Assembly (NCBI GenBank): GCA_964621755.1
Contig: CAZUPI010000007.1
Span: 7,016-71,015 of the forward strand
Direction of reading: 5' to 3'
DNA length: 64,000 bases
Source of the DNA: an uncultured Ruminococcus sp.
GTDB taxonomy: Bacteria > Bacillota > Clostridia > Oscillospirales > CAG-272
Shown here in pieces: positions 10,103-59,624 of the stretch; the stretch's first letter is position 1; each line of letters begins with the position of its first letter. The notes under the pieces were generated by a model. The model was not told where the DNA came from, ran no database searches, and saw only the letters and a program-made list of their open reading frames with translations. A program made the position numbers and the translations under genes.

Positions 10103-11830
10103 TCAGCCGTTGTAAACCGAGATATGGCTGTTCAGTTCGGTAACAAGTTCGATAACTGCAGTGGAAGTTGCACCGCTATCTTCGAGAAGGGCGCTTGCTT
10201 CTTCGTAGTGTTCAATAAGACCGCTGTCATTTGCTGCAACACCGCTGTCGATGAGCATCTTTGCCTGAAGTACGAGAGCTTCAAGAAGGGCACGTTCCGC
10301 ATCAGTTGCAGGAGATTCCGCGATGATGTTTGCGTAGTTGCTGCTGGAAACGGTTACGACGTAGGTGTTCGCGCTGTTGTAAGCTTCGGTCATTGTGACC
10401 TTTCCATCAACAACAGCTACACCGGAAGCTACAGTGGTCTTCTGACGACCGGAACCATAGTAGATACCAACTGTTACATCTTCGAGTGCTTCGGGAATAT
10501 TTTCTACAACGACATCGGCAGAGCCTTCAGCGAAGGTAGCTTTGATGACTTCGGAACCATCATAAGCAGGCTTGATGTAAATACCGTCGAAGGTATAAAC
10601 GTAAGTATTGTCGGGCATGATGTAGGTGATGGAAGTAACCCTTTCACCAACAAGTTTGGCAAGCTCAGGAAGGTTATCCCATCCAACGATATGGGAGTTG
10701 CAAAGACTGTCTTCACTTACGTTGAAGGAAACTTCCCAAGGCTGTACCCACATGCTCTGGAGATGTTCCATACCAACTTTAAGACCGGATTCGGTTTCAA
10801 GGATAATACCTTGGATATTTGCGTTAATGATCCAACCTTCATCCGAACGGTTGGTGCGGATATATGCGGTGGAGTTTTCAGTTACGTTGATTTGATAATC
10901 ACCCCATGTGGAACCGGTCTGAAGTTCAGCGGAGGCGTCTGTTACTGTTTCAACGATGTTGAAATTGGTGGCAGAATATACTGCTTTTCCATCAACAATC
11001 GAAACGGTCTTATACTGTTCGGGTGTACTTCTTGCAAGCTTGAATGTGGGATTAATTTCGAGATATGCATCATAATCATCCGCAGAAACAGCAACATTTA
11101 CATTTTTTACACCAAGAATATTGTAACCGTCCGTATTTTCTTCGGTGTAATTCGTGTACATGTTATCATTGAAGCTACTATACATTTTTACGGTAGCAGA
11201 AGTAACGCCGTCAATGCCGTAATATTCGGTTGTGCTGACGTCTCCGGAGTAGTATTCAGCATAAGTCAGCGTAGCAGTGCCGTAAACGACATCATGCTCA
11301 CTGATGTCAAAGGTCAGTGTATCGTAAATGTTGTCCAGAATTGTGATGCCTTCCGCACGTGTCAACTGAGAAGTAGGGTTAAGTAAGCCGGCGGTAGTGC
11401 CGTGGACATAATCGCCCGCAACCAGAGCAGCTACAGCATTTTTGGCACCTTCGGAAATCTCAGCAGCATCGCTGAACTTGGAAAGAGCGGCAATATCTGT
11501 ATCGGTTGCCGTAAGTCCCAGAACATCAGCAACAATGGTCATCGCTTCTTCACGGGTGAATATGCCGTCTTCATCTTCTTCCGTATTTTCAATAGGCGAC
11601 TTTGAGATTTGATTCAGAAGAGAAACAAACTGCGCGCGGTCCATTGCGACATCCGGACTGTAATGTACAACGCCATAATCGTTCATCCAACCGCTGTCAA
11701 CAAAGAACTGCAAGGATTTTTCAGCCCAGTGGCCGGCAATATCCGTGGCAGGAGCCGCGGCTGCGGATGCTGCCACACACATACTTCCAACCAGCAGTGC
11801 ACAGAAGAGAGTGTTGATTTTCTTGTTCAT
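10103..11830 (-). CDS. Secreted cell-wall-anchored protein: signal peptide, SLH repeats, and an uncharacterised C-terminal region of about 400 aa
   Basis: Signal peptide MNKKINTLFCALLVGSMCVAASAAAA. SLH-like blocks are DIAGHWAEKSLQFFVDSGWM...DRAQFVSLL and FSDAAEISEGAKNAVAALVAGDYVHG...LTRAEGITIL. It contains IDGVTSAT, which resembles the flavinylation motif. Confidence 0.8.
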   Translation of the reverse strand: MNKKINTLFCALLVGSMCVAASAAAAPATDIAGHWAEKSLQFFVDSGWMNDYGVVHYSPDVAMDRAQFVSLLNQISKSPIENTEEDEDGIFTREEAMTIVADVLGLTATDTDIAALSKFSDAAEISEGAKNAVAALVAGDYVHGTTAGLLNPTSQLTRAEGITILDNIYDTLTFDISEHDVVYGTATLTYAEYYSGDVSTTEYYGIDGVTSATVKMYSSFNDNMYTNYTEENTDGYNILGVKNVNVAVSADDYDAYLEINPTFKLARSTPEQYKTVSIVDGKAVYSATNFNIVETVTDASAELQTGSTWGDYQINVTENSTAYIRTNRSDEGWIINANIQGIILETESGLKVGMEHLQSMWVQPWEVSFNVSEDSLCNSHIVGWDNLPELAKLVGERVTSITYIMPDNTYVYTFDGIYIKPAYDGSEVIKATFAEGSADVVVENIPEALEDVTVGIYYGSGRQKTTVASGVAVVDGKVTMTEAYNSANTYVVTVSSSNYANIIAESPATDAERALLEALVLQAKMLIDSGVAANDSGLIEHYEEASALLEDSGATSTAVIELVTELNSHISVYNG

Positions 11831-11849: not shown

Positions 11850-11867
11850 AGTTAGTGAATGCTAACT
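11850..11867. promoter_or_regulatory. 18-bp palindrome AGTTAGtgaatgCTAACT (putative operator or RNA hairpin), just upstream of the SLH gene RBS
   Basis: Member of the RGTTAG-N6-CTAACY set, seen 6 times plus 1 degenerate copy in this window. Confidence 0.6.
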
Positions 11868-11922: not shown

Positions 11923-11940
11923 GGTTATCTTCTGCTAACT
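11923..11940. promoter_or_regulatory. 18-bp palindrome copy GGTTATcttctgCTAACT, at the predicted transcription start of the SLH gene
   Basis: It lies 7 nt downstream (minus strand) of the -10 TATACT at 11948..11953. One mismatch in the left arm. Confidence 0.5.
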
Positions 11941-11947
11941 TATATGT

Positions 11948-11976
11948 AGTATATCACACATAAATGTTTATTTCAA
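11948..11976 (-). promoter_or_regulatory. Sigma-A-type promoter TTGAAA-17-TATACT for the SLH protein gene
   Basis: Hexamers read on the minus strand at 11976..11971 and 11953..11948, with 17-bp spacing. Confidence 0.5.
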
Positions 11977-12063: not shown

Positions 12064-12579
12064 TCATTTTACTTTTTTGGATATTTTTTTCATTTGATAT
12101 ACCACAAGCTGTGCGCAGAATCCGGTGAAAGTTCCGCTGATAATACCGGAGATGAGCAGTACCGGCAGATAGCTTATAATCGCCGGTGTCTGCGTGATAA
12201 CGATTGCCACGGCAATCTGCCCGATATTATGTGCAACCGCACCAATGACGCTACATATCCAGATCTGTTTCTCTGTTACGATTTTCCGCATCAGAAGCAT
12301 TATAAGATAACAAAACATACCGCCGCATAAACTGTACAGAAACGCCATCATCTGTCCGGCAAAGATACAGCCCAGAACGATGCGGCACAGCAAAATGGCG
12401 AGGGTGTCCAATGAACCGCACAGAAACATAGCGTATACGGTAATCACATTCGCCAGTCCCAGTTTTACTCCGGGAATGGGGAGCGGCGTCGGAATCTGTG
12501 CTTCCACCACAAAAATGATTAATGCGATTGTAGTCAACATGGCATTGCGCGTTAATCGTTTGATTTTTTGATTGTTCAT
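12064..12579 (-). CDS. Gx transporter family membrane protein (heptaprenyl diphosphate synthase component I-like)
   Basis: The start at MNNQKIKR (12579) overlaps the upstream stop (ATGA). Five hydrophobic helices. This family is typically clustered with ApbE and NusG-II genes. Confidence 0.7.
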   Translation of the reverse strand: MNNQKIKRLTRNAMLTTIALIIFVVEAQIPTPLPIPGVKLGLANVITVYAMFLCGSLDTLAILLCRIVLGCIFAGQMMAFLYSLCGGMFCYLIMLLMRKIVTEKQIWICSVIGAVAHNIGQIAVAIVITQTPAIISYLPVLLISGIISGTFTGFCAQLVVYQMKKISKKVK

Positions 12580-12971
12580 TGACTTACACCGTCCAATGCG
12601 ATTTCTTCGCTTCCGCCCGGATTTGTCTGCACAAGCTGGATGACCAGTTTGTTCGGCAGACAGACGATTGGTAAGGCTCCTGTGGACTGCCAGCCTTGAT
12701 GAACACAAATCTGGTCCGGACAATCGGCCTCACTGACGCAGATTCTTCCGGGTTCTACAGAAATTATATTTTTCCCGTTCGTTCCTTCTACAACAAAGGA
12801 ATAGGGAGATACAACGGCGGAAAGCTCAATGGTTTCAATGCACTTATTGTCCAGGTAAATTTTCGCTGTCATATCTGCTGTCCCATTCCCCTGCCGCATC
12901 AGCAAAAGGGTACAAAATGATATCACCAGAACCAATATGATTCCAATTACCCAAATTCTTGTTTTTATCAT
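12576..12971 (-). CDS. NusG domain II-containing membrane-anchored protein
   Basis: N-terminal TM IWVIGIILVLVISFCTLLL, then a beta-rich domain with CPDQICVHQGW, as in NusG_II family proteins. ATGA overlaps occur at both ends. Confidence 0.7.
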   Translation of the reverse strand: MIKTRIWVIGIILVLVISFCTLLLMRQGNGTADMTAKIYLDNKCIETIELSAVVSPYSFVVEGTNGKNIISVEPGRICVSEADCPDQICVHQGWQSTGALPIVCLPNKLVIQLVQTNPGGSEEIALDGVSQ

Positions 12972-14059
12972 CGCTTGATTACCGACAGTTCTTTGTCTGC
13001 ATAAGCTTCCGCCAGAGTAAAACTGTCACACAGCCCTTCTGTGATATGGATGTTTCCATCTTCTGTTACAAAAATAGCTTCAAATCCCTCGTGCGTCCGC
13101 CAGTATTCGGAAGCCTTGTCCAATCCCATAACGAACAATGCAGTCGACATGGCATCGCACAGCAGGCCGCTTTCTCCGACGATGGTTACGGAGAGAATTC
13201 CGTTGTCCGCCGGTTTTCCAGTGGCTGGGTCGATGATATGCCAGTAAGTTCTGCCGTCGTCTCCGATGAAATACCGTTCGTAACTGCCGGAGGTGATGGC
13301 TGCCATGTTGGAAAGGGAAAGAACTCCCAGATAGTTTTCCTTATCGACTGGATGCTGAACGGCAATGCGCCACGGGCTTCCATCCGGTTTGCTGCCCAGC
13401 GCCTGTACGTTCCCGCCGAGATTCAGCAAAGCGGAGGTGATGCCGTTTTCTTTGAACAAATCGCAGAGAATATCGCCGGTGTAGCCCTTTGCCACACTTC
13501 CTAGGTCAATCTGTACATCTTCAGGAATCGATGCGTTCTGACCATCTAGAACAACGGAGGTATAATCCACATGCTCCAATAGGGCGGCAAGCTCCATATC
13601 ATCCGGAATTCGGTAATCTCCGGTGGTAAATCCCCATGCGCGTACGACGGGATACACGGTAATATCCAGTGCACCCTCTGTATTTTTGCAAAATTCCAGC
13701 GAAGTGTTCAGTAGAGAGGCGGTATCATCGGAAAGAATGCTGGTTCCGGTCGTGTTGAGCGTGTAAATCTCACTTCCGGGCAGAGTTACGGACAGCTTGC
13801 TTTCAAGCCCGACGATGCGTTTCTCTGCCAGCTCAAGGACGTCCTCTCCCCCGCTGTAAACCGTGAGTTCCATAGCAGTATCCATAGCGAGAACAATCCG
13901 GTTATATTTTTCCAGCGAAGCATCGGATTGCTCCGCGATGGCTGAGGTGGTTTCCTGAGGGAGGGGATCCGGTGTTTCCGTAACCGCGTCGGCATGGGCG
14001 CAGCCTGAAAGCAGGAGGCAGAGAAGAAACGAAAGAATTCGGTGTTTACGCATAATCAT
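12968..14059 (-). CDS. apbE: FAD:protein FMN transferase ApbE, lipoprotein
   Basis: The start was chosen at MIMRKHRILSFLLCLLLSGC (lipobox LSGC) with an AAGGAAA RBS. ApbE-like blocks: AMDTAMELTVY, DLGSVAKGY, ALLNLGGN, AITSGSYERYF, HIIDPATGKP. Confidence 0.9.
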   Translation of the reverse strand: MIMRKHRILSFLLCLLLSGCAHADAVTETPDPLPQETTSAIAEQSDASLEKYNRIVLAMDTAMELTVYSGGEDVLELAEKRIVGLESKLSVTLPGSEIYTLNTTGTSILSDDTASLLNTSLEFCKNTEGALDITVYPVVRAWGFTTGDYRIPDDMELAALLEHVDYTSVVLDGQNASIPEDVQIDLGSVAKGYTGDILCDLFKENGITSALLNLGGNVQALGSKPDGSPWRIAVQHPVDKENYLGVLSLSNMAAITSGSYERYFIGDDGRTYWHIIDPATGKPADNGILSVTIVGESGLLCDAMSTALFVMGLDKASEYWRTHEGFEAIFVTEDGNIHITEGLCDSFTLAEAYADKELSVIKR

Positions 14060-14075
14060 ACTTTCCTTATGGTTA

Positions 14076-15626
14076 TTAATTCTGCGCCTGGGCCAATGCG
14101 TTGGATATTGCTTCAAGCAGACCTTTCGAGCTGTAGGTTGCACCGGACACAGTATCCACTTCTGTACTTTGTGCTTCAATGACATTGTCTACGACTTCGA
14201 GCGCCTTGGACCAGAAAGCTTGGTCGTCTGATGTAGAGATAACAACAACGTAGGAAATGGAACCACCCGAAATCATAACTGCAACTTGAACATTTCCACT
14301 ATATCCGGTGCCATTACCGAAGTAAGCACCATCTTTGTATTGTACAGCAGGTTCAGGTTCGGGAGCAGGCTCAGGCTCAGGAGTGGGCTCAGGCTCGGGA
14401 GCAGGCTCAGGCTCGGGTTCGGGAGCAGGCTCAGGCTCGGGAGCAGGCTCAGGCTCGGGAGTGGGCTCAACTTCAGACTCTAAATTGGAAGTTTCATCAA
14501 GTGGAGCACTCGCATCAGCCAAAGCATTTTGAACCGCTTCAATGATGCCGCTCGAACTGAACGTTGCACCGGTGACAGTATCTACATCTGTGCTTTGTGT
14601 GGAAATAATCGTATCAATGACTGCAAGAGCGCTTGTCCAGAACGGTTCATCATCGTTGAATTCCACTACGTCGATGGACTCGATTTCATTTTCCGATACC
14701 GTTACGGCAAGGGTGATATTTCCAGAGAAACCCATGCCGGTTCCGTTGTAGGTACCGGTTTTGTATTTATATTCCATATCAGTTGCATCCGCGCCAGCGT
14801 CTGTTTCTTCAGGGGCTGCAATCCCGGTAGCTGCTACAACAGGAGAATTGGATCCTTTCGGTATGAGGGATGGTACACAGATAAATGCCAGTACAGCAAC
14901 AGCCACGACGAGCGGTACAACCGGAACGATTTTTGCAGCGGAGGGATTCCTTTTCCGCATCGCTTTACAGATACGCATCACCGCGTACACCGTAAAGATA
15001 ACGGTATAAAGGATAATATTGAACAGATATTTCATCTGTCCGCTTGCAAGAAGTGTGCTGTTCAGCAGCATAACATGCACGTAAATCAGCCCGTAGAACA
15101 CATAAGCCATACGCTGCAGCCTTTTCCAGTTCTTCGGCTTCATTTTTTTTCGTACTGCTGGAAATGAGGTTATCATCAGCGGGAGCATTATCGCAATCAT
15201 AACGAGCGAGCAAAGCGCCGCATACAGCAATTTGCCTGACAGCTGTTCCGGGGAGGTGAACAGCATTACGAAATACGTTTTTCCATATCCGATATTATGA
15301 CCGAGGGTGAGAATGCAGGCAATGATGGATAGTTCTGCGCGGATAGGCATCAGATGCTTGATGGCAGTGGAACCGTTTGGCAGAGCACCCATCATCATGA
15401 CAATAACAAATAGTGCCGTCGCAAAAGCACAGTTCGCGAAAATCGGCCAGATATAATTTTGTATCCATATTGGAAAACTGCGGTTCAGACCGCTGTATGT
15501 AACAACGATTATAAGCAGGCTTAGCACAGCAGAAATCACGTAAAAGAGATTGGCGTGTTTTTTAATTTGCTTTGCGCCAAACCATGAGAATGCGAATGCA
15601 AGCAGCAGACTGATAAGAAAAACCAT
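14076..15626 (-). CDS. Ferric-reductase-like multi-pass membrane domain fused to two extracytoplasmic FMN-binding domains
   Basis: The N-terminal region of about 245 aa has about 8 helices with conserved His ([18 protein letters not shown]). There are two FMN_bind domains with flavinylation motifs [10 protein letters not shown] and [10 protein letters not shown], joined by a Pro/Glu linker. Confidence 0.85.
14349..14469 (-). repeat. Coding low-complexity tandem repeat ([10 protein letters not shown] linker)
   Basis: Repeated GGCTCAGGCTCGGGAGCA units encode [40 protein letters not shown]. Confidence 0.9.
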
Positions 15627-15653: not shown

Positions 15654-15671
15654 GGTTAGCTTTAGCTAACC
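15654..15671. promoter_or_regulatory. 18-bp palindrome GGTTAGctttagCTAACC in the leader of the flavin-reductase operon
   Basis: Perfect arms. It lies 27-44 nt upstream of the ATG at 15626 and about 41 nt downstream of the -10. Confidence 0.6.
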
Positions 15672-15712
15672 AAGGGGTAATAAAGCTACCAAAAAGTAAC
15701 CTATGAGAATAT

Positions 15713-15741
15713 AATATATCACTATCTCAGATGTTTGTCAA
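15713..15741 (-). promoter_or_regulatory. Sigma-A-type promoter TTGACA-17-TATATT for the FRD/FMN-apbE operon
   Basis: Minus-strand hexamers at 15741..15736 and 15718..15713. Confidence 0.55.
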
Positions 15742-43118: not shown

Positions 43119-43907
43119 TTACCCTAACGCCACGTCAAGGACCATCATGAGGGCGAAGCCGGCTGCGGCGCCGATGGTACCCATGTTGCTGTGTGCGCCG
43201 TTCTGTGATTCGGGAATGAGTTCTTCTATTACTACGTATATCATAGCGCCGGCGGCGAAAGAGAGAATGTAGGGAAGAACAGGGGTAATGAGCGAGGTCA
43301 AAAGAATGGTAAGAAGCGCTCCTATGGGCTCGACAACGCCGGAGAGAAGACCGTAGGAGAAGGCCTTTCCCTTCGAAATTCCCGTCCCTATAAGGGGCAT
43401 AGAGATGATGGCGCCCTCAGGGAAGTTCTGGATGGCAATGCCAATTGCAAGGGCAAACGCACCCGCCGTGGAAATGGTCGCGCCGCCCGCTAGCATGCCG
43501 GCGAAAACAACTCCTACCGCCATTCCTTCCGGAATATTGTGCAGCGTGACCGCAAGAACCAGCATGACGGATTTCCCGAATTTTGATTTCGCACCTTCCG
43601 GCTCGTCAGAATCTATATGAAGATGTGGAATGACAGAGTCCAAAAATAAAAGAAATCCAATGCCTAGTAAAAATCCTACAACTGCCGGTATCCATGCGAT
43701 GTTTCCGCTATCCTCTGTCATTTCGATTGCCGGAATCAGAAGAGACCAAACTGATGCAGCAATCATAACTCCCGATGCAAAACCAAGCAGTACTTTCTGA
43801 AGAAGAGGCTTCATTTCCCGCTTCAAAAAGAACACCATCGATGCTCCCAAAACCGTTCCGGCAAGCGGGAGCAGTAAGCCAATTATAATTTTTAATGTGT
43901 CATTCAT
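43119..43907 (-). CDS. ZIP-family divalent metal transporter (ZupT-like)
   Basis: 262 aa with 8 TM-like segments. HNIPEGMAVG and QNFPEGAIIS motifs. Confidence 0.85.
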   Translation of the reverse strand: MNDTLKIIIGLLLPLAGTVLGASMVFFLKREMKPLLQKVLLGFASGVMIAASVWSLLIPAIEMTEDSGNIAWIPAVVGFLLGIGFLLFLDSVIPHLHIDSDEPEGAKSKFGKSVMLVLAVTLHNIPEGMAVGVVFAGMLAGGATISTAGAFALAIGIAIQNFPEGAIISMPLIGTGISKGKAFSYGLLSGVVEPIGALLTILLTSLITPVLPYILSFAAGAMIYVVIEELIPESQNGAHSNMGTIGAAAGFALMMVLDVALG

Positions 43908-43959
43908 CCTATCTGCTCCTTTGAAATGCAGCTATCATTTTTGATTCATGATGTTTTCC

Positions 43960-43988
43960 ATTATATCATATAATTGTGAAGGTTTCAA
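43960..43988 (-). promoter_or_regulatory. Sigma-A-type promoter TTGAAA-17-TATAAT for the ZIP transporter
   Basis: Minus-strand hexamers at 43988..43983 and 43965..43960. Confidence 0.5.
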
Positions 43989-44165
43989 GTTATCTCGCTT
44001 TATCCGTCGCAGGGCAACTGCCAGGGAGACGTTATGAAATCCTTGTACGTGAAACGTACACAATCTGTTTTGCGCGAATTTATACAAATTCAATAATTAT
44101 ACCCTACTGGATAGGTGAAAAAGTGACGAAAATTGATTGCGTTAAATTTTTTGTACGAAAAGCTC

Positions 44166-44194
44166 TTGACAAAAATCCCTCGGCGTTTTATAAT
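44166..44194 (+). promoter_or_regulatory. Consensus sigma-A promoter TTGACA-17-TATAAT of the feo operon
   Basis: TTGACAaaaatccctcggcgtttTATAAT. The palindrome 44201..44218 begins 6 nt after the -10. Confidence 0.75.
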
Positions 44195-44200
44195 ATGCAT

Positions 44201-44218
44201 AGTTAGATGATGCTAACT
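44201..44218. promoter_or_regulatory. 18-bp palindrome AGTTAGatgatgCTAACT at the predicted feoA transcription start
   Basis: Perfect 6-bp arms. A degenerate second copy, GGTTAGcctatgCTGATT, follows at 44222..44239. Confidence 0.65.
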
Positions 44219-44270
44219 TATGGTTAGCCTATGCTGATTCTGGCAGATACAAAAGAGAGAAGGCGAAGCT

Positions 44271-44483
44271 ATGATGCCATTGACATTTGCCACTGTTGGA
44301 GAAGAAAACATCATTAAAAAAGTCGGCGGAAGTCCTGAAGTCAAAAAGCATCTTGAAAATCTTGGATTTGTTACGGGCGGAAATGTGACCGTGATTAACG
44401 AACTTGGCGGGAACATTATTGTGAACGTCAAGGAAGCGCGGATTGCAATCAGCCGTGAAATGGCGCAGAAAATCATGATTTGA
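44271..44483 (+). CDS. feoA: FeoA family protein
   Basis: 70 aa SH3-like FeoA pattern (GEENIIKKVGG...LENLGFVTGGNVTVI...IVNVKEARIAISREMA). Confidence 0.85.
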   Translation: MMPLTFATVGEENIIKKVGGSPEVKKHLENLGFVTGGNVTVINELGGNIIVNVKEARIAISREMAQKIMI

Positions 44484-44519
44484 TTTTACATAAGGATAAA
44501 TTTTGAGGAGGACCTACAG

Positions 44520-44741
44520 ATGAACACACTAAGAGAGGCAAAAATCGGCGATACAGTGAAGGTCGTAAAGCTTCACGGTGAAGGTGCCGTAAAACGCCGT
44601 ATCATGGACATGGGAATTACAAAAGGCGTAGAGGTACATATTCGTAAGGTAGCGCCCCTTGGCGACCCCATTGAAGTGACCGTGCGCGGCTACGAGTTGT
44701 CTATCCGCAAGGGAGACGCGGAAATGATTGAAGTCGAATAA
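44520..44741 (+). CDS. feoA: FeoA family protein (second copy)
   Basis: LREAKIGDTVKVVKLHGEGAVKRRIMDMGITKGVEVHIRKVAPLGDPIEV... Confidence 0.85.
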   Translation: MNTLREAKIGDTVKVVKLHGEGAVKRRIMDMGITKGVEVHIRKVAPLGDPIEVTVRGYELSIRKGDAEMIEVE

Positions 44742-44794
44742 TCTGGACTGGCAGTCCATTTTACTGTCTATTTCTATTGTTTTCTATGGCATGC

Positions 44795-44812
44795 GGTTAG
44801 GAAATGCTAACT
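44795..44812. promoter_or_regulatory. 18-bp palindrome GGTTAGgaaatgCTAACT between feoA2 and feoB
   Basis: It lies in the 148-bp feoA2-feoB spacer, 78 nt upstream of the feoB ATG. Confidence 0.55.
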
Positions 44813-44889
44813 GCATGGTGAATTTGGTGAACTTTTGGGAAAAAGCGTTTTTCGCTTAAACACCCCATCAACAGAAAGAAGGATTTGAC

Positions 44890-47307
44890 ATGGATTTAAG
44901 AATCGCGCTTGCGGGGAATCCAAACTGTGGTAAGACCACATTGTTTAACGCGCTCACCGGTTCGAACCAGTTCGTCGGAAACTGGCCGGGCGTTACGGTT
45001 GAGAAAAAAGAAGGAAAATTGAAAAAGCATGACGGCGTTGTCATTACCGACCTGCCAGGCATTTACTCCCTTTCTCCCTACACCCTTGAGGAGGTTGTGG
45101 CGAGAAACTACTTGATCGGCGAGCGTCCGGATGCGATACTCAACATCATCGACGGTACAAACCTTGAGAGAAACTTGTACCTCACTACACAGCTTACGGA
45201 ACTTGGAATCCCGACGGTGGTTGCCATCAACATGATGGACGTTATCCGCAAAAACGGCGACAAAATCAACACGGAAGAGCTTTCCCGTCAGCTGGGCTGC
45301 AAGGTAGTTGAAATCTCCGCCCTCAAAGGGGACGGCATCATGGCGGCGGCTGAGGAAGCAATTAACGCCGCGAAAAATACCAAGACTGTTCCGCAGCACA
45401 CCTTTACAGGAGTAGTCGAGCATGCTATCGCCCACATTGAGGAAGCAGCTGTACATACTATGCCTGATGAACAGCAGAGATGGTACGCCATCAAGATTTT
45501 CGAGCGCGACGATAAGGTCCTTGAACAGCTGAAGCTGGATAAGACCATCCTTGAACATATCGAAAGGGATATCAAGGCAGCGGAAGAAGAGCTTGACGAC
45601 GACGCAGAATCTATCATTACCAACGAGCGTTACGTATATATTGCCTCTTTAATGAAGGCTTGCTACAAGAAAAAATCCGCCGGAACACTTTCGACCTCCG
45701 ATAAAATCGATAAAGTTGTCACCAATAGATGGGCAGCTCTTCCGATTTTCGCGGTAATTATGTTCCTTGTATACTATATTTCCGTCTCCACTGTCGGTAC
45801 CATCTTCACAGATTGGGCAAACGACGGCGTGTTCGGCGACGGTTGGCATTTGTTCTCGATTGGCAGCTCCGCTTATGACGACGCAATGACAGAGTATGCG
45901 ATTGATAACGTTTGGACGGATGAAATGAAGTCTATCGTGGACGCCGCTGCTGCTGCAGATGTAATCGGTGCCGAAGATATTCAGGGCGCGATTGAAGAGA
46001 AAGACTTCGGCGCGTTTGACGAGGCTTATGGCTCGTTTGCAGATTCTCTCGCAGAAAGAGGGTACGATATTTCGGAAATCTACGATGCGGCTCTTGGCGA
46101 TGACGCGGAAAATGTTCCGGACTCTGCTGACTACGGCGTTTGGGTTCCTGGTATTCCGGTGCTGGTTGAAAGCGGTCTGGAAGCTGTCGGTACACCGGAA
46201 TGGCTGAACAGCCTCCTGCTTGACGGTATCATCGGCGGTGTTGGTGCGGTTCTCGGCTTCGTTCCGCAGATGGTAGTTCTCTTTATCCTGTTGGCTTTCT
46301 TGGAAGCGTGCGGATATATGGCCCGTATCGCGTTCGTGATGGACAGAATCTTCCGTAAATTCGGTTTGTCCGGTAAATCCTTCATTCCGATGCTCATCGG
46401 AACCGGATGCGGCGTTCCTGGCGTCATGGCGTCCCGTACCATTGAAAATGAACGTGACCGCAGAATGACCATTATGACGACCACGTTTATCCCGTGCGGC
46501 GCAAAGCTCCCGATTATTGCACTTATTGCCTCTGCTTTGTTTCACGGTGCTTGGTGGGTTGCGCCCTCCGCTTACTTTGTCGGTATCGCGGCAATCGTAA
46601 TATCCGGTATCATGCTCAAGAAAACAAAGGTGTTTGCCGGAGACCCTGCGCCGTTTGTTATGGAGCTTCCCGCTTACCACTGGCCGACCTTCGGAAACAT
46701 CATGCGTTCCATGTGGGAGCGTGCGTCCTCCTTTATTAAGAAGGCTGGTACGATTATCCTTCTGTCCTCCATCATTATCTGGGCAGGTTCTTGCTTCGGC
46801 ATGATGGACGGTTCGTTCACCTTCAGCACAGAAATGGAACTGGAAGACAGCGTTCTCGGCATCATCGGCGGTGCGATATGCTGGATTTTCTCTCCTCTTG
46901 GCTTTGGCAACATCAAGGCGACTATCGCCACGATTATGGGTCTTGTTGCGAAGGAAGAAGTGGTCGGCGTGTTCGGCGTTCTCGATTTCGAGGGCTTGAG
47001 CAAGCTCGGGGCTTATTCGTTCCTCGTATTCAACCTCCTCTGCGCACCGTGCTTTGCGGCTATCGGCGCTATCAAACGTGAAATGAACAGCGCAAAGTGG
47101 ACGTGGTTTGCAATTGGTTATCAGTGCGGTTTCGCTTATGTCGTATCGCTGATGATTTATCAGATTGGCTCTGCTTTTACAGGAAACGTAAACATAATCG
47201 GTCTGATTGTAGCTATTCTGCTTTTGGCAGCTATGGTATATATGCTTGTTAAGCCTTACAAGGAAGCTACCAAGCTCACAGCAAACGTAAAAGTAACAGC
47301 GAAATAA
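44890..47307 (+). CDS. feoB: Ferrous iron transporter FeoB (805 aa, with an acidic insertion of about 130 aa after TM1)
   Basis: G-domain GNPNCGKTTLFN, DLPG and NMMD. Membrane-domain blocks are FLEACGYMARIAFVMDRIFRKFGLSGKSFIPMLIGTGCGVPGVMASRTI. Confidence 0.95.
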   Translation: MDLRIALAGNPNCGKTTLFNALTGSNQFVGNWPGVTVEKKEGKLKKHDGVVITDLPGIYSLSPYTLEEVVARNYLIGERPDAILNIIDGTNLERNLYLTTQLTELGIPTVVAINMMDVIRKNGDKINTEELSRQLGCKVVEISALKGDGIMAAAEEAINAAKNTKTVPQHTFTGVVEHAIAHIEEAAVHTMPDEQQRWYAIKIFERDDKVLEQLKLDKTILEHIERDIKAAEEELDDDAESIITNERYVYIASLMKACYKKKSAGTLSTSDKIDKVVTNRWAALPIFAVIMFLVYYISVSTVGTIFTDWANDGVFGDGWHLFSIGSSAYDDAMTEYAIDNVWTDEMKSIVDAAAAADVIGAEDIQGAIEEKDFGAFDEAYGSFADSLAERGYDISEIYDAALGDDAENVPDSADYGVWVPGIPVLVESGLEAVGTPEWLNSLLLDGIIGGVGAVLGFVPQMVVLFILLAFLEACGYMARIAFVMDRIFRKFGLSGKSFIPMLIGTGCGVPGVMASRTIENERDRRMTIMTTTFIPCGAKLPIIALIASALFHGAWWVAPSAYFVGIAAIVISGIMLKKTKVFAGDPAPFVMELPAYHWPTFGNIMRSMWERASSFIKKAGTIILLSSIIIWAGSCFGMMDGSFTFSTEMELEDSVLGIIGGAICWIFSPLGFGNIKATIATIMGLVAKEEVVGVFGVLDFEGLSKLGAYSFLVFNLLCAPCFAAIGAIKREMNSAKWTWFAIGYQCGFAYVVSLMIYQIGSAFTGNVNIIGLIVAILLLAAMVYMLVKPYKEATKLTANVKVTAK

Positions 47308-47325
47308 GTGAAAGGAGATGCCCGG

Positions 47326-47508
47326 ATGCTCACATGGGTTGCAGCTAACCTTGCTACTATTCTCATTTGCCTTGTTCTGATTGGAATTGTAGCGGCGATT
47401 ATCGTAAGTATAGTTAAGGGAAAGAAAAAAGGAAAATCCGCTTGCGGTTGCGGATGCGCAAGTTGTCCCATGAGCGGCTCGTGCAGCTCATCTCACAAGA
47501 AACATTAA
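47326..47508 (+). CDS. FeoB-associated Cys-rich small membrane protein
   Basis: The start was chosen at MLTWVAANL (AAGGAGA RBS). One TM, then KKKGKSACGCGCASCPMSGSCS. Confidence 0.8.
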   Translation: MLTWVAANLATILICLVLIGIVAAIIVSIVKGKKKGKSACGCGCASCPMSGSCSSSHKKH

Positions 47509-47530
47509 CCACAGCGTCAAAAAGAAAGGA

Positions 47531-47561
47531 TGCAAGGGGACGCACAAAAGTTACCCTTGCA
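47531..47561 (+). terminator. Hairpin after the feo operon
   Basis: TGCAAGGG...CCCTTGCA stem followed by moderately T-rich sequence. Confidence 0.45.
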
Positions 47562-47580
47562 CCCTTATCTTATACACATG

Positions 47581-47598
47581 AGTTAGCTAAAGCTAACT
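47581..47598. promoter_or_regulatory. 18-bp palindrome AGTTAGctaaagCTAACT upstream of the DUF2325 gene
   Basis: The palindrome extends to TGAGTTAGC-taaa-GCTAACTCA. It lies 22 nt upstream of the ATG at 47620, immediately 5' of an AAGGAGG RBS. Confidence 0.6.
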
Positions 47599-47619
47599 CA
47601 TCAAATCAAGGAGGAACAC

Positions 47620-47913
47620 ATGAGCGTAGTCATTATTGGAGGAAACGAGTGCATGACCCGGAGGTATGTGGAGTTATGCGCGGAATACAAGTGCAAGGCA
47701 AAGGTATATCCGAAGATGAACGCGGGCCTAAAGAACCTTGGCAAGCCTGACTTGCTCGTCCTATTCACCAACACGATGTCGCACAAGATGCTCCGCTTTG
47801 TTCTGAGCGAGACGAAGGGACGAGACATTCGGATTGCGCGCAGTCACACAAGTTCAGCAGCTGCGCTGAAAAACATTCTGCAGGAACACACGCGTGAGGT
47901 CTGTCCGGTGTAA
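47620..47913 (+). CDS. DUF2325 domain protein
   Basis: VVIIGGNE...KPDLLVLFTNTMSHKM...ARSHTSSAAALKNIL matches the DUF2325 pattern, which is often found next to feoB in Clostridia (from recall). Confidence 0.7.
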   Translation: MSVVIIGGNECMTRRYVELCAEYKCKAKVYPKMNAGLKNLGKPDLLVLFTNTMSHKMLRFVLSETKGRDIRIARSHTSSAAALKNILQEHTREVCPV

Positions 47914-47934
47914 TAATAAGAAGAGAATATGCGG

Positions 47935-47967
47935 ATGGGGGACACTTTTTCAAAAAGTGTCCCCCAT
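47935..47967. terminator. Bidirectional terminator between convergent genes
   Basis: ATGGGGGACACTTTTT-c-AAAAAGTGTCCCCCAT. Confidence 0.75.
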
Positions 47968-48013
47968 CGCGTCTCTATTACACTATTTTTCCATACAATT
48001 TGGTGACCATCCT

Positions 48014-49068: not shown

Positions 49069-50463
49069 TTATTCTTCGTATAGCAGAGCATTTAGCCTCG
49101 TTGCGGCATCGGCAATGTCAAACGAGACAATCGACATCTTATTGTACCAAGCAAATTTATATGCATCGGTAAACGGAACGACATGCGTCTCGATTGTAAG
49201 CGTGTTTTTCTGAGACACGACCGACGTAACAAGCGACGTCATGGTAATCATATCAATGTTGGTGCTGACAATAGACGTGGTGTATTCGACCAATTCGAGT
49301 ATCTCGGACAGAGACTTTTCCTTTAGTATCGTCGATACGATTGTAGTTATCACGTCACGCTGCCGCTTTGTTCTGCCGAAGTCGTTGCCGATAGCCCGGT
49401 TACGTATATGTTTCATCACCTCGTCGGCATTGAGATGGCATACACCTGCAGTGAAGGTCTTGCCATAAGTGCTATTGTAATAATCAACCTCTTCCTGCGT
49501 AAGCGTTACATCGACGCCGCCGATGTGATCGATAAATTCGCACACACCATCCATGTCAACCACGATAAATCTCTGAATATCAAGATCGAACAGTTGGTTA
49601 ATGGTGTTGATGGCCAACCCTACTCCGCCAAAAATATATGCGGTATTCAGACGGTTCCAATCATATCCCTCAATCGGTACAAGCGAATCTCGCAGGAGCG
49701 AGACTAACTTCACCTCACCGCTTTTCTTATTGTAAGATACCACTATCATGGTATCACTTCGCCCGCGGTCGACCGTGACGTCACGCGAATCTGTGCCGAG
49801 CAGAAGAATATTTACTATATCGGTACTTTTCTGCTTTACCTCGTAAATGGGTATACCTTTATAAACGGATAGTTTGTTCGATGAATTGCTGTATGTCGTA
49901 GTCGGCAAAGTCGCGGACGGTTGAGTGTCTGTGGTGGGTGTATCGACCGGCTCCGTATCGACCGGCTCCGTATCGACCGGTTCTGTGTCGACCGGTTCTG
50001 TGTCGACCGGTTCTGCGTCGACCGGCTCCGTATCGACCGGTTCTGCGTCGACCGGTTCTGTGTCGACCGGTTCTGTATCGACCGGCTCCGTTTCAATTGA
50101 TTCCGCATCGTCACCCGGTTCATCATCGAGCTGTGGGTAGTCGGGCATAATATATGTATCCGGCCTTTTCACAATATCGACCGGCTCGTATGTAGCGTTG
50201 TACTGTTTTATAATAAACGCGGCCACAACGCCGATAAAAAACAAAAGCAGCACAGCGACAACAATCAATATGATCTTAATCCATTTTTTTTGTTTTTTCA
50301 TTTTCACCGTTTTCATTCCCCAATGTCTTTGGAGTCTCTTGCTAAAAAATTTATTTACAGTAATACGTCTTTCGTATATACTGAACTTGCCGCCAATTTC
50401 CCGTAGGCAGTTGACCAGCACCCGATAATCGGCCATGCTTTCGTTGAAAGACATTGATGACAT
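49069..50463 (-). CDS. LytR-CpsA-Psr (LCP) family cell-wall polymer transferase with an (EPVDT)n spacer
   Basis: VNILLLGTDSRD...RSDTMIVVSYN LCP core and TM WIKIILIVVAVLLLFFIGVVAAFII. The start is uncertain (alternative ATG at 50316). Confidence 0.8.
   Translation of the reverse strand: MSSMSFNESMADYRVLVNCLREIGGKFSIYERRITVNKFFSKRLQRHWGMKTVKMKKQKKWIKIILIVVAVLLLFFIGVVAAFIIKQYNATYEPVDIVKRPDTYIMPDYPQLDDEPGDDAESIETEPVDTEPVDTEPVDAEPVDTEPVDAEPVDTEPVDTEPVDTEPVDTEPVDTPTTDTQPSATLPTTTYSNSSNKLSVYKGIPIYEVKQKSTDIVNILLLGTDSRDVTVDRGRSDTMIVVSYNKKSGEVKLVSLLRDSLVPIEGYDWNRLNTAYIFGGVGLAINTINQLFDLDIQRFIVVDMDGVCEFIDHIGGVDVTLTQEEVDYYNSTYGKTFTAGVCHLNADEVMKHIRNRAIGNDFGRTKRQRDVITTIVSTILKEKSLSEILELVEYTTSIVSTNIDMITMTSLVTSVVSQKNTLTIETHVVPFTDAYKFAWYNKMSIVSFDIADAATRLNALLYEE
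49941..50090 (-). repeat. Ten tandem 15-bp coding repeats (EPVD[T/A] x10)
   Basis: Units TATCGACCGGCTCCG and TGTCGACCGGTTCTG, head to tail and in frame. Confidence 0.95.
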
Positions 50464-57029: not shown

Positions 57030-59624
57030 TTACGGTAAAGCTTTCCCCTCCCGACTGAGTTTTTTCAGTATCGCTCTGATTTCCTCATCTACCGCGAGTA
57101 TTTCTTCGCGGAATTCGCGTGCAGACAACCGCAAAACGCCTGAACGCAGCGCCTGCAGCTGGATAAGTCCATCTGAGGTAACTACACGCACCGAGAAATC
57201 CTTACCAATCTCACGGATCAGTTTTTCAATGTAGATGTCTCCCAGCTCGCCCTCTTTGGTGTAAACAATGTGAAGTCCGTGATAGTCAAACTTTCGCTCT
57301 ACAGAACATTTTACGTTGTATGCGTCAAATACCACAATCATATCGCGGCCGGTATATGCCTGATAATTTGCCAGTATGTCACACAGACTTTGCCGTGCAT
57401 GTTCCAGGTCGTTTTCGGCGATGGCGGCAAGCTCGTCCCAGGCGAAAATTACATTGTATCCGTCTACAATATATAAAGATTTTTTGTATTTTACATTTCC
57501 AGCATTTGCTATCTGCGGCTTCTTCGGGCCACCGTAGACCTTTCTCTTAATGGGGCCAAATTCGCGTTCCATGATAGACTCAAGTTCTTTTTCGTCAATG
57601 TTAAGGTTCTTTTGGATAACCTGCGGCTCCGCAAGCTGTATTTTGTCTTCTTCCGTAGCAGATTCCAGATTCAGCCCCTCAAGATGCATGTACTGCGGAA
57701 CCATCGCCCACGGGACAATAAACCCCGCGCCGTGCGAGCAGAAAACCGAATCCGGCGTATTGTCAATATCCGCTTCGGGATTATATCGGAATTCGCTAAG
57801 AACTTCATCGGTGTTATGGCAGGGAAAATATCCCTCAACCCTGCATGAAAATTTTCCTTTCCCATGAGTATAGGCTGCCACTTCGCGTGCATGTCCACCA
57901 ATGGCCGCAACGGGCGCTCTTCCCACAAGAACGGAGGTGCCGACATCCGCTTCATGTTCGTCAAACGTTCCAAATCGCGCGAGAATATCCGATATCGCGC
58001 GTCCAACATATTCGCCGGGGAGTTCCAATCGGAAGGAATAATACGGCTCCAGAAGAACCGTTTTCCCATGTGACGAGGCGGTCATCAAGCCCTGTCTGAC
58101 TGCGCGGTAAGTGGACTCCCGAAAATCGCCGCCTTGCGTATGCTTGAGGTGCGCACGACCGGAAACCAGAGTGATTTTCATATCCGTAATCGGAGAACCG
58201 GTCATGACGCCAAGGTGCTGTTTCTCCTCAAGATGGGTGAGAATCAGTCTTTGCCAGTTTCTCTCAAGAAAGCTCTCGTTGCAGACCGTATCAAATACAA
58301 GTCCGCTCCCCCGTTCAAGAGGTTCCAAAAGAAGATGCACTTCCGCATAATGACGCAGCGGCTCAAAATGCCCTACCCCCTCGACTGGCTCTGTGATGGT
58401 CTCTTTATACATAATTCGTCCGTCGTCAAAGCTGACATCTACACCATACCGTTCGGATATCAGGCTGACAAGTACCTCTGTCTGCACCTGCCCCATAACC
58501 TGAGCGTGGATTTCCCCAAAACGTTCGTTCCATACGATATGCAGAAGCGGCTCCTCCTCTTCAAGCATTTGCAGCTTCGGAAGAATCGTCCGGGCGTCCA
58601 CCTCTTTTGGCAGGGTGATGCGGTAGTTCAGCACGGGCTCAAGGTACGGTCTTCCGGATGATTCCGCTTCTCCAAGCCCCTGACCAGCATAGGTTTTGCT
58701 CAATCCGACAACTGCACATACATCTCCCGCCTGAGCGGTTTCGAGACTATCGAATTTGGCACCGGAGTACATGCGTATAGAGGTGATTTTTTCTTCAATC
58801 GGTTCGCTTGCCCCAAGGGGAAGATAAGAGAGAGGCTGCCTGACCGACAGTGTCCCACCAGTCAACTTCATATATGTGAGCCGTGCCCCGTTTTTATCAT
58901 GTGCGATTTTGTACACCCGTGCTGCAAACGATTCCGAAGCAGTAGAATATTCCTGTTCAACAGTATACCGATCCAAAGCGTCGAGAAGCTGCTCAATCCC
59001 TTCGAGCTTTAAACCGCTGCCGAAGAAACAGGGAAACAGCCTGCGTTTCCGTATCAGACTGGCAATATCCTTATCTTCAACTGTGCCGCTATTCATATAT
59101 TTTTCAAGGATATCTTCATCGGTCATTGCGATTTGCTCATCACGGTCTGCCGCATCACGGAAATCGATACATCTGTGGTCAAGTCCGGCGGAGAGTCCTC
59201 GCATGATTTCGCGTTCATCGCACCCTGCAAGGTCCATTTTTGTCACAAAAATAAAGGTTGGCACGCGGTAGCGTTCCAGCAAATGCCAAAGTGTTTCCGT
59301 ATGCGCTTGCACACCTTCTGATCCGCTGATAACAAGTATCGCATAATCCAGAACCGACAAGGTTCGTTCTGTTTCCGCAGAAAAGTCGACATGCCCAGGA
59401 GTATCAAGGAGCGTTATCTGCAAATTCCCAGTTGTGATGATTGCCTGCTTGGAGAAAATGGTGATACCACGTTCACGCTCGAGCTCATGTGTGTCGAGGT
59501 ACGTATTTCGCCAGTCGACTCTACCGGGCTTTTTTATTTTTCCGGTTGTATATAAAAGCGCCTCAGACAGAGTCGTTTTACCCGCGTCCACATGCGCCAA
59601 AATTCCGATAACCTGTTTTTTCAT
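57030..59624 (-). CDS. Translational GTPase (TetM/EF-G-like, five-domain) fused to a C-terminal Rae1/YacP-type NYN ribonuclease domain
   Basis: G1 AHVDAGKTT, G3 DTPGH, G4 TKMD, and blocks collinear with ribosomal-protection proteins to about residue 640. Residues 716-864 (nt 57033..57479) read LYIVDGYNVIFAW...MIVVFDAYNV...IVYTKEGELGDIYIEKL...VVTSDGLIQ, collinear with B. subtilis Rae1/YacP. Confidence 0.85.
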   Translation of the reverse strand: MKKQVIGILAHVDAGKTTLSEALLYTTGKIKKPGRVDWRNTYLDTHELERERGITIFSKQAIITTGNLQITLLDTPGHVDFSAETERTLSVLDYAILVISGSEGVQAHTETLWHLLERYRVPTFIFVTKMDLAGCDEREIMRGLSAGLDHRCIDFRDAADRDEQIAMTDEDILEKYMNSGTVEDKDIASLIRKRRLFPCFFGSGLKLEGIEQLLDALDRYTVEQEYSTASESFAARVYKIAHDKNGARLTYMKLTGGTLSVRQPLSYLPLGASEPIEEKITSIRMYSGAKFDSLETAQAGDVCAVVGLSKTYAGQGLGEAESSGRPYLEPVLNYRITLPKEVDARTILPKLQMLEEEEPLLHIVWNERFGEIHAQVMGQVQTEVLVSLISERYGVDVSFDDGRIMYKETITEPVEGVGHFEPLRHYAEVHLLLEPLERGSGLVFDTVCNESFLERNWQRLILTHLEEKQHLGVMTGSPITDMKITLVSGRAHLKHTQGGDFRESTYRAVRQGLMTASSHGKTVLLEPYYSFRLELPGEYVGRAISDILARFGTFDEHEADVGTSVLVGRAPVAAIGGHAREVAAYTHGKGKFSCRVEGYFPCHNTDEVLSEFRYNPEADIDNTPDSVFCSHGAGFIVPWAMVPQYMHLEGLNLESATEEDKIQLAEPQVIQKNLNIDEKELESIMEREFGPIKRKVYGGPKKPQIANAGNVKYKKSLYIVDGYNVIFAWDELAAIAENDLEHARQSLCDILANYQAYTGRDMIVVFDAYNVKCSVERKFDYHGLHIVYTKEGELGDIYIEKLIREIGKDFSVRVVTSDGLIQLQALRSGVLRLSAREFREEILAVDEEIRAILKKLSREGKALP

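Follow-up and report, generated by a model that had tools for sequence, protein, structure and literature searches.

An 18-bp palindrome, RGTTAG-N6-CTAACY, recurs in and beyond the feo locus of a 64,000-nucleotide stretch of DNA from an uncultured Ruminococcus sp. (contig CAZUPI010000007.1, positions 7,016 to 71,015; this whole stretch is here called the window). Our analyses indicate that the palindrome is very likely the DNA operator of a small, two-domain metalloregulator of the DtxR family that lacks an SH3 domain and is presumably encoded elsewhere in the genome. A preliminary description of this DNA had proposed an iron-responsive, possibly DtxR-family operator with unusual spacing in the feo locus. 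The DtxR-family assignment is well supported by conservation at the promoters of 80 orthologous loci, by 23 nearby genes for Fe-type DtxR proteins, and by iron-related targets, whereas the claim about spacing and the restriction to feo did not stand. What we say below about binding, effector, direction of repression, and roadblock action at internal sites is drawn from sequence and comparison.

Palindromes in leaders and promoters of the window

The three palindromes previously placed at 44201, 44795, and 47581 (O1, O2, and O3; Table 1) were all present at those coordinates, and the accompanying gene calls (FeoA, FeoA, FeoB, FeoB_associated, and DUF2325) were correct by Pfam. Across the window, RGTTAG-N6-CTAACY matched exactly five times, against 0.01 matches expected, and none of 100 shuffled windows contained five; all five sites fall in leaders or promoters. 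The minimal core TTAG-N6-CTAA also occurred exactly five times (0.52 expected), in each case within one of these sites. A position weight matrix (PWM) was built from the sites of the orthologous loci and applied to the window and to shuffled windows. The five sites scored 20 to 25 bits, the best being that at 15654-15671 (25.3 bits), compared with shuffled-window maxima that averaged 12.4 bits and reached 17.8 bits. Chance origin of the palindromes in the window is excluded. Since two further transcription units carry exact copies (11850-11867 and 15654-15671), the motif, for which the earlier account had listed three sites in the feo locus, is not specific to feo.

Two weaker companions accompany these sites. 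The copy at 11923-11940 (18.5 bits) outscored all 20 shuffles tested with the PWM. The degenerate tandem copy reported at 44222-44239 (O1') is plausible but, with 15.9 bits against a shuffle maximum of 17.8, borderline when taken alone. Beyond the five sites and these two companions, all PWM scores in the window were at most 9 bits. A third weak copy near 15697, a minus-strand candidate picked by eye, scored below 8 bits and was dropped.

O1 begins 6 nt after the -10 element of a TTGACA-17-TATAAT promoter that agrees with the consensus at 12 of 12 positions, as had been described, and therefore lies on the predicted feoA transcription start. Here and below, promoters and transcription starts in the window and in the orthologous loci are predicted, unmapped ones. 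A consensus scan of the window detected no internal promoter before feoB or DUF2325.

The palindrome has the geometry of a one-dimer DtxR-type site

The 19-bp DtxR/IdeR box consists of four CCTAA quintets, each contacted by one subunit, such that a dimer contacts repeats 1 and 3 or repeats 2 and 4 (PMC8464063). A single IdeR dimer can occupy a "half" target, and a 14-bp one-dimer consensus, TTAGGNNNNCCTAA, has been proposed (PMC8464063). The core of the palindrome, TTAGC-N4-GCTAA, has the same one-dimer geometry (TTAGG-N4-CCTAA, equivalent to TTAG-N6-CTAA), and all five window sites fit it. Because a single dimer reads TTAGG-N4-CCTAA (PMC8464063), the spacing of the palindrome is canonical rather than unusual; the earlier contrast with half-sites 1 nt apart was a misreading, the 19-bp box being two overlapping one-dimer sites and N6 the one-dimer spacing. 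At the window sites, no second copy offset by 5 bp, as in the full four-quintet box, was found; they are isolated 18-bp palindromes. Among the orthologous loci described below, only L052 (6691-6713) carries a near-canonical 19-bp two-dimer box, with two copies offset by 5 bp (GGTTAGGTTAAGCTAACCTAACC) that read TTAGGTTAAGCTAACCTAA and agree with the canonical box at 18 of 19 positions.

The motif had been said not to resemble the classical Fur box. Sequences of the type TGATAAT-N-ATTATCA were matched in the window seven times with three mismatches (3.8 expected), and none of these matches lay near the feo, SLH, or reductase promoters. With matches at chance level and located elsewhere in the window, a Fur box at these promoters was rejected.

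The motif is conserved at fixed positions in orthologous feo loci

A scan of genome contigs with FeoB yielded 80 loci from Oscillospirales and Lachnospirales, with 68 to 88% FeoB identity and a total length of 1.29 Mb; the window itself exactly matches none of them. These loci contained 146 perfect and 117 one-mismatch occurrences of GTTAG-N6-CTAAC, against approximately 1.2 perfect occurrences expected by simple arithmetic. Of these sites, 227 lay no more than 1.2 kb upstream of feoB, and the 194 kb of feoB coding sequence contained no perfect site. The consensus across loci was RGTTAG[C/T]-N4-[G/A]CTAA[C/T]Y, with conserved arms and six variable central bases. Upstream of the feoA orthologues, the motif was strongly kept at the promoters of the 80 loci. 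The 18-bp size, the variable centers, and the fixed promoter and ribosome-binding site (RBS) positions across this range of FeoB identity ruled out a mobile or REP-like repeat.

Most loci share one layout: a TTGACA-17-TATAAT promoter is followed after 5 to 7 nt by site 1, on the predicted transcription start, then by site 2, usually 34 bp after site 1, and then by the feoA RBS. Counting the loci and the window together, 68 sites occupy the predicted-start position; overlap of the operator with the -10/+1 region of predicted metal-uptake promoters was found for O1 and for the orthologous loci. Twelve sites lie between -35 and -10 (for example in L012, L013, L017, L043, L045, and L075); in this spacer class, the 3' arm supplies the -10 element (tgCTAACAt or tgCTAATAt) and the start carries a site of its own. 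Many loci also have an extra site on the far side of the feoA -35 element, about 108 bp upstream. The pre-feoB class comprises 63 sites (loci and window) roughly 30 to 130 bp, typically 35 to 40 bp, 5' of the feoB start codon; their 3' arm gives no usable -10, since position -7 is not T. In most loci without a pre-feoB site, no replacement palindrome was seen at that position.

Candidate regulators are encoded beside feo in relatives

No DtxR-, MntR-, or Fur-type gene was detected in the window, either by Pfam on greedily called open reading frames (ORFs) or by local phmmer searches in which DtxR, MntR, and Fur probes were run against every ORF of 60 aa or more, which bears out the earlier statement that no candidate regulator gene is evident there. 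The other regulators of the window (an OmpR-type response regulator with its kinase, an Xre-type helix-turn-helix protein, an AraC protein, and an ECF-sigma fusion) were not linked to the sites. Among the 80 feo loci, however, 23 contain an ORF of 119 to 145 aa that matches both the DtxR and the MntR probes. In 15 loci this gene is divergent from feoA and has a site no more than 400 bp from its start. Five representative regulators were scanned, and all passed the Pfam thresholds for Fe_dep_repress and Fe_dep_repr_C. The regulators have two domains and end after the dimerization domain, with no SH3-like domain.

Aligned to the solved DtxR structure, the regulators show GEMYLE at the position of Met10 and DAC[KR]xEH at Cys102, Glu105, and His106. 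The latter motif is kept in nearly all of them; Met10 is kept in the largest subgroup and replaced by Asn or Asp in others. At the ancillary site, His79 is retained and Glu83 and His98 are replaced. Met10 and Cys102 are likely determinants of selectivity for Fe(II) over Mn(II) (reviewed in PMC11672702).

A metagenome scan with the regulator alignment also returned 80 loci. In these regulator-anchored loci, feo was adjacent in 29 of 80, nearly always with sites in the intergenic region between the two, and loci with the regulator elsewhere usually lacked sites. We conclude that the sites are markers of target genes and that the regulator gene often lies at a distance from feo, as must hold for this organism.

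Evidence against the proposed operator and alternative explanations

Several observations weigh against a DtxR-family iron repressor acting at these sites. No DtxR-family gene occurs in the 64-kb window or, in the closest relatives (L001 to L007), at less than 10 kb from feoB, so the regulator of this organism is assumed rather than seen. The two-domain regulators of relatives score higher with NCBIfam MntR models (58 to 100 bits, against cut-offs of 138 to 153) than with the DtxR model (31 to 44 bits, against 290), all below the cut-offs, and for the subset with Asn or Asp in place of Met10 a Mn(II) or mixed specificity is conceivable. The strongest sites of the two non-feo operons, of feoB, and of DUF2325 adjoin the RBS rather than the promoter, an unusual placement for a repressor that simply occludes promoters. 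Lastly, the sites are not symmetric: on the sense strand, C17→T was found in 68 of 239 sites and its mirror image, G2→A, in 6 of 239, an asymmetry that a symmetric dimer does not predict.

Alternatively, the palindrome could be an RNA hairpin of 5' leaders and intercistronic spacers, either recognized by a protein or acting as a stabilizing or RBS-modulating stem-loop. All window copies other than O1 are predicted to be fully transcribed, 19 to 77 nt before a start codon, and the hairpins are of modest stability (-3.8 to -8.6 kcal/mol). Covariation was assessed in 96 transcribed sites (leader site 2 and the pre-feoB site). In 46 of these, the sense-strand G2-C17 pair becomes G-U, with the A-C mirror almost absent, and paired cells made up 89.0% compared with 87.2% in shuffles, the observed value being reached by 2 of 500 shuffles. 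The same sites nevertheless speak for conservation of the arm sequence itself, not just of pairing, as the preliminary description had argued: five core pairs show no two-sided change, and the only pairs that vary are the two at the ends of the stem, outermost and innermost, each of which is unpaired in 31 of 96 sites. Further wobble-compatible changes (C13→T, A15/A16→G, and A5→G) are essentially absent among the sites of the loci. Complementary double changes, found in 5 of 36 two-mismatch sites, were as numerous as the high T17 frequency predicts, with none in the core, and were rejected as a covariation signal; the site search demands conserved arms and is thus biased against detecting compensatory changes, a concern eased by this agreement and by the lack of replacement palindromes in most loci without a pre-feoB site. 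As site 1 starts right at the predicted +1, a transcript might contain only part of its 5' arm. The 12 spacer sites and the many sites upstream of the feoA -35 element are predicted to be untranscribed, which speaks directly for recognition as DNA. An Rfam search of positions 43900 to 48000 returned no relevant match at E ≤ 1; its only hits were spurious miRNA matches from the terminator after DUF2325 (the 47915-47982 repeat). In addition, the arms use the words of the DtxR-family DNA consensus, and the sites co-localize with a DtxR-family gene. Invariant pairs are uninformative, so these results disfavor rather than disprove a hairpin role; we consider it very unlikely as the primary function, the transcribed copies may still have a secondary role as RNA, and the element is best interpreted as a DNA operator.

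If the element is a DtxR-family operator, its effector might still be Mn(II) or another divalent metal sensed by an MntR-like protein, with Feo and the reductase serving manganese or general metal uptake. The regulators do have two domains, the length of MntR, and their best NCBIfam scores with MntR models (77 to 100 bits); Met10 gives way to Asp or Asn in some subgroups, and sites occur with a ZIP transporter in L058 and near a ZIP homolog in L138. Against this, the MntR scores all fall far below the equivalog cut-offs, the residue at DtxR Cys102 is a nearly invariant Cys where MntR has Glu, and feoAB is the commonest and best-conserved target. A role in Fe(III) reduction is also suggested by the co-regulated ferric-reductase-like/FMN/ApbE operon (PMC8238504); we regard a primarily manganese-responsive switch as unlikely. 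Even less probable, and in our estimation highly so, is that an unrelated factor of the Xre, MarR, or Rrf2 type, or the DUF2325 product, reads the sites and that the adjacency of DtxR genes to feo is coincidental. Such a factor would account for the lack of a regulator gene in the window, for the 57 of 80 feo loci with no DtxR-like gene within 10 kb, and for DUF2325 being nearly always close by with its own site. It would leave unexplained that the motif is the family-specific one-dimer DtxR/IdeR consensus (PMC8464063), that L052 has a near-canonical 19-bp box, and that divergent regulator-feoA pairs share sites in the genome and metagenome sets alike. Stand-alone regulator genes also have upstream sites (L058 19607 and L062 15976), and DUF2325 has no recognized DNA-binding domain in Pfam.

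Strand asymmetry and a possible terminator-operator coupling

The strand asymmetry varied with site position. At both leader site 2 and the pre-feoB site, T17 made up about 48%, as opposed to 12% at site 1, and the excess of C17→T over G2→A was seen in every site class; in the spacer class, T17 improves the -10 element. A C→T mutation bias was ruled out as the cause, positions 7 and 12 being symmetric (T7 in 57 and A12 in 56), as was a simple hairpin constraint, other wobble-type changes being absent. The asymmetry might reflect an orientation-dependent roadblock, in which the half-site nearer the promoter stays perfect and the distal one relaxes to CTAAT; alternatively, the operator sequence may be under a second, weak constraint as an RNA hairpin.

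A GC-rich hairpin with a T tail preceded the pre-feoB operator in 30 of 62 loci, compared with 8 of 243 random 70-mers. In these 30 loci the gap between stem end and operator was 12 to 18 nt (mode, 16 to 17), and the hairpin sequences differed among loci. The corresponding gap in the window, from the hairpin at 44744-44758 to O2, is 36 nt. The order hairpin, operator, RBS recurs before DUF2325 (47531-47561, then 47581) and in the SLH-gene leader. This arrangement raises the possibility, which we consider rather doubtful, that metal-loaded repressor at the pre-feoB operator stalls polymerase on the U-tract, making a leaky terminator iron dependent and uncoupling feoB and DUF2325 from feoA.

Organization of the feo locus and further putative targets

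Table 1. Operators, promoters, hairpins, and genes in the window (window positions)
Feature	Position	Strand	Evidence
Secreted 575-aa SLH-domain protein, remainder unassigned	10103..11830	-	Pfam SLH; signal-peptide-like N terminus in translation
Operator in SLH-gene leader (gene on minus strand), 19 nt 5' of start codon	11850..11867	.	Exact match; 23.9 bits
Weaker copy AGTTAGcagaagATAACC (minus strand)	11923..11940	.	18.5 bits; 7 nt after SLH-gene -10
SLH-gene promoter, TTGAAA-17-TATACT, with TG	11948..11976	-	10/12 match
Hpre_diP_synt_I/ECF-S-like membrane protein, last gene of operon	12064..12723	-	Pfam PF07456, 8e-42
ApbE flavin transferase, longest ORF	12968..14185	-	Pfam ApbE, 7e-83
Ferric-reductase-like N-terminal membrane domain plus two FMN-binding domains	14076..15626	-	Pfam FMN_bind, two stretches
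Operator GGTTAGctaaagCTAACC (minus strand), reductase-operon leader, 27 nt 5' of start codon	15654..15671	.	Exact match; 25.3 bits
Reductase-operon promoter, TTGACA-17-TATATT, with TG	15713..15741	-	11/12 match
feoA promoter, -35 TTGACA (44166-44171), -10 TATAAT (44189-44194)	44166..44194	+	12/12 consensus
Operator O1, AGTTAGatgatgCTAACT	44201..44218	.	Exact pattern match; PWM 20.1 bits
Weak tandem copy O1', GGTTAGcctatgCTGATT, 21 bp after O1	44222..44239	.	PWM 15.9 bits, borderline
feoA1	44271..44483	+	Pfam FeoA, 2.5e-16
feoA2	44520..44741	+	Pfam FeoA, 2.6e-22
Terminator-like hairpin TGGACTggcAGTCCA with TTTTA tail, 3' of feoA2	44744..44763	+	Terminator-like scan
Operator O2, GGTTAGgaaatgCTAACT, feoA2-feoB spacer	44795..44812	.	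Exact match; 22.4 bits
feoB	44890..47307	+	Pfam FeoB_N, FeoB_Cyto, Gate, FeoB_C
FeoB-associated Cys-rich membrane protein	47326..47508	+	Pfam PF12669, 4.7e-11
8-bp hairpin TGCAAGGG...CCCTTGCA, 19 nt upstream of O3	47531..47561	+	Read from sequence
Operator O3, AGTTAGctaaagCTAACT, 21 nt 5' of DUF2325 start codon	47581..47598	.	Exact match; 25.2 bits
DUF2325 gene, recurrent regulon member	47620..47913	+	Pfam PF10087, 4e-27

The first gene of the reductase operon (14076-15626) encodes a protein with a weak match to the MamZ C-terminal (YedZ/ferric-reductase-like) family (6.5e-7, far below the family cut-off) and a long PEPEPA-type low-complexity linker that joins its two FMN-binding domains. The true start of the ApbE gene is probably further downstream than that of the longest ORF. 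Flavinylated extracytosolic proteins have been connected with iron assimilation (PMC8238504), and it makes sense to view the FMN-binding/ApbE operon together with Feo as extracellular Fe(III) reduction coupled to Fe(II) uptake through Feo.

Outside the window, sites precede genes for DUF2325 proteins (L003:8083-8367, L030:8155-8436, and L033:12770-13066), DUF3793 proteins (L030:8490-9062 and L062:8492-9070), ABC-transporter ATPases (L049, L056, and L058), and the ZIP transporter of L058. Since an operator copy of their own recurs before DUF2325 and DUF3793 genes, we assign both families to the putative iron regulon. Two relatives have Fur-family genes 3' of feoB, at distances from a few hundred bases to about 5 kb (L049:9182-9625 and L032:8209-8658). 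In L049, a DtxR-type site and an ABC-transporter ATPase gene come, in that order, after the Fur-family gene, which suggests overlapping metal regulons.

Other features of the window were recorded in passing. Divergent from feoA, a ZIP-family transporter gene (43119-43907, minus strand) is served by a promoter of its own (43988-43960) and lacks an operator copy, in contrast to the ZIP homolog of L058, which sites precede. A strong inverted repeat, GGGGGACACTTTTT...AAAAAGTGTCCCCC (47915-47982), probably a bidirectional terminator, separates DUF2325 from the convergent gene beyond it. An 864-aa ORF (57030-59624, minus strand) encodes an EF-G-like GTPase (GTP_EFTU, EFG_III, EFG_IV, and EFG_C) with a C-terminal YacP-like NYN nuclease domain, and an 838-aa protein (17681-20197, minus strand) starts with an ECF sigma factor (regions 2 and 4) and continues in a long extension with a DUF3108-like domain at its C-terminal end. 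The ORF translations also include a LytR_cpsA_psr protein (49069-50463, minus strand) with an EPVDT/EPVDA tandem-repeat linker.

A model for iron-dependent repression

We propose that each 18-bp site takes one dimer, its core TTAG(C)-N4-(G)CTAA corresponding to the one-dimer half of the 19-bp DtxR/IdeR box. With sufficient cytosolic Fe(II), the metal-loaded dimer would occupy the transcription start or the -35/-10 spacer and would block RNA polymerase at the promoters of feoA-feoA-feoB, of the ferric-reductase-like/FMN-binding/ApbE operon, and of the SLH gene. The copies 5' of the RBSs of feoB, of DUF2325, and of the two other operons would probably act as roadblocks, the one before feoB perhaps in cooperation with the upstream terminator-like hairpin. 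Under iron limitation, the apo-protein would leave the DNA, and the iron-acquisition regulon would be expressed.

This would most likely be a known kind of switch, built from one-dimer DtxR-type operators and an uncharacterized two-domain, Fe-type DtxR subfamily of gut Clostridia; it is no new regulatory principle, unless the coupling of terminator and operator is functional. We found no iron regulator or operator described for Oscillospirales or Lachnospirales in the searchable literature. These orders are dominant gut anaerobes, and the operator, candidate regulator, and targets outlined here (Feo, the ferric-reductase-like/flavinylated extracytosolic protein with ApbE, the SLH surface protein, DUF2325, and DUF3793) give them a concrete putative iron regulon. 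Such a regulon would tie flavin-based extracytosolic electron transfer to iron-regulated uptake and would place two domains of unknown function, DUF2325 and DUF3793, in iron homeostasis. The sites also provide candidate natural examples in favor of the proposed 14-bp one-dimer site for DtxR/IdeR proteins.

Comparison with known metalloregulators

Another gut anaerobe, Akkermansia muciniphila, has a DtxR-family gene, Amuc_1082, in its Feo cluster; iron-responsive co-expression suggests control of Feo, with the authors calling for validation of direct regulation (PMC12552655). It belongs to a different phylum, and the parts of that report available to us define no operator (PMC12552655). A closer parallel in DNA sequence is TroR, a DtxR-family iron regulator of Haloferax volcanii that represses iron uptake in the iron-replete state and recognizes TTTAGGC-NNN-CCTAAA, in tandem motifs about 30 bp apart of which one suffices (PMC10783522). 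The TTAG-N6-CTAA core, the presence of several motifs per promoter, and the tandem spacing are shared; the TroR sites differ in lying about 100 nt upstream of start codons at archaeal TATA/BRE promoters, and they were validated by ChIP-seq and reporters (PMC10783522), whereas the clostridial operator is proposed from comparison.

In size, two-domain architecture, and best NCBIfam matches, the candidate regulators resemble Bacillus subtilis MntR and other two-domain manganese sensors. They fall below the MntR equivalog cut-offs, however, and do not have the binuclear site of MntR (Asp8/Glu99/Glu102/His103): where MntR has Asp8 and Glu99, they have Met (or Asn or Asp) and Cys. The targets differ as well, being feo and the reductase operon here and mntH/mntABC there.

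The closest comparison is with the IdeR/DtxR iron box of Actinobacteria (TTAGGTTAGSCTAACCTAA). That box comprises two dimer sites in 19 bp and serves high-GC actinobacteria; the palindromes described here are single one-dimer sites, often in tandem 21 to 34 bp apart, in a Gram-positive anaerobe of the Clostridia, and the base flanking the core is G/C-swapped (GCTAA here, CCTAA there). The regulators of relatives have Arg, Val, Ile, or Tyr at the position of Gln43 and lack both an SH3-like domain and the Glu83 and His98 of the ancillary site. The two systems nonetheless share the arm words TTAG and CTAA in one-dimer geometry (PMC8464063), as well as sites that overlap the -10 element and the transcription start of iron-uptake genes, and the regulators encoded beside feo in relatives have both DtxR-family domains together with the ligands Met10, Cys102, Glu105, and His106.

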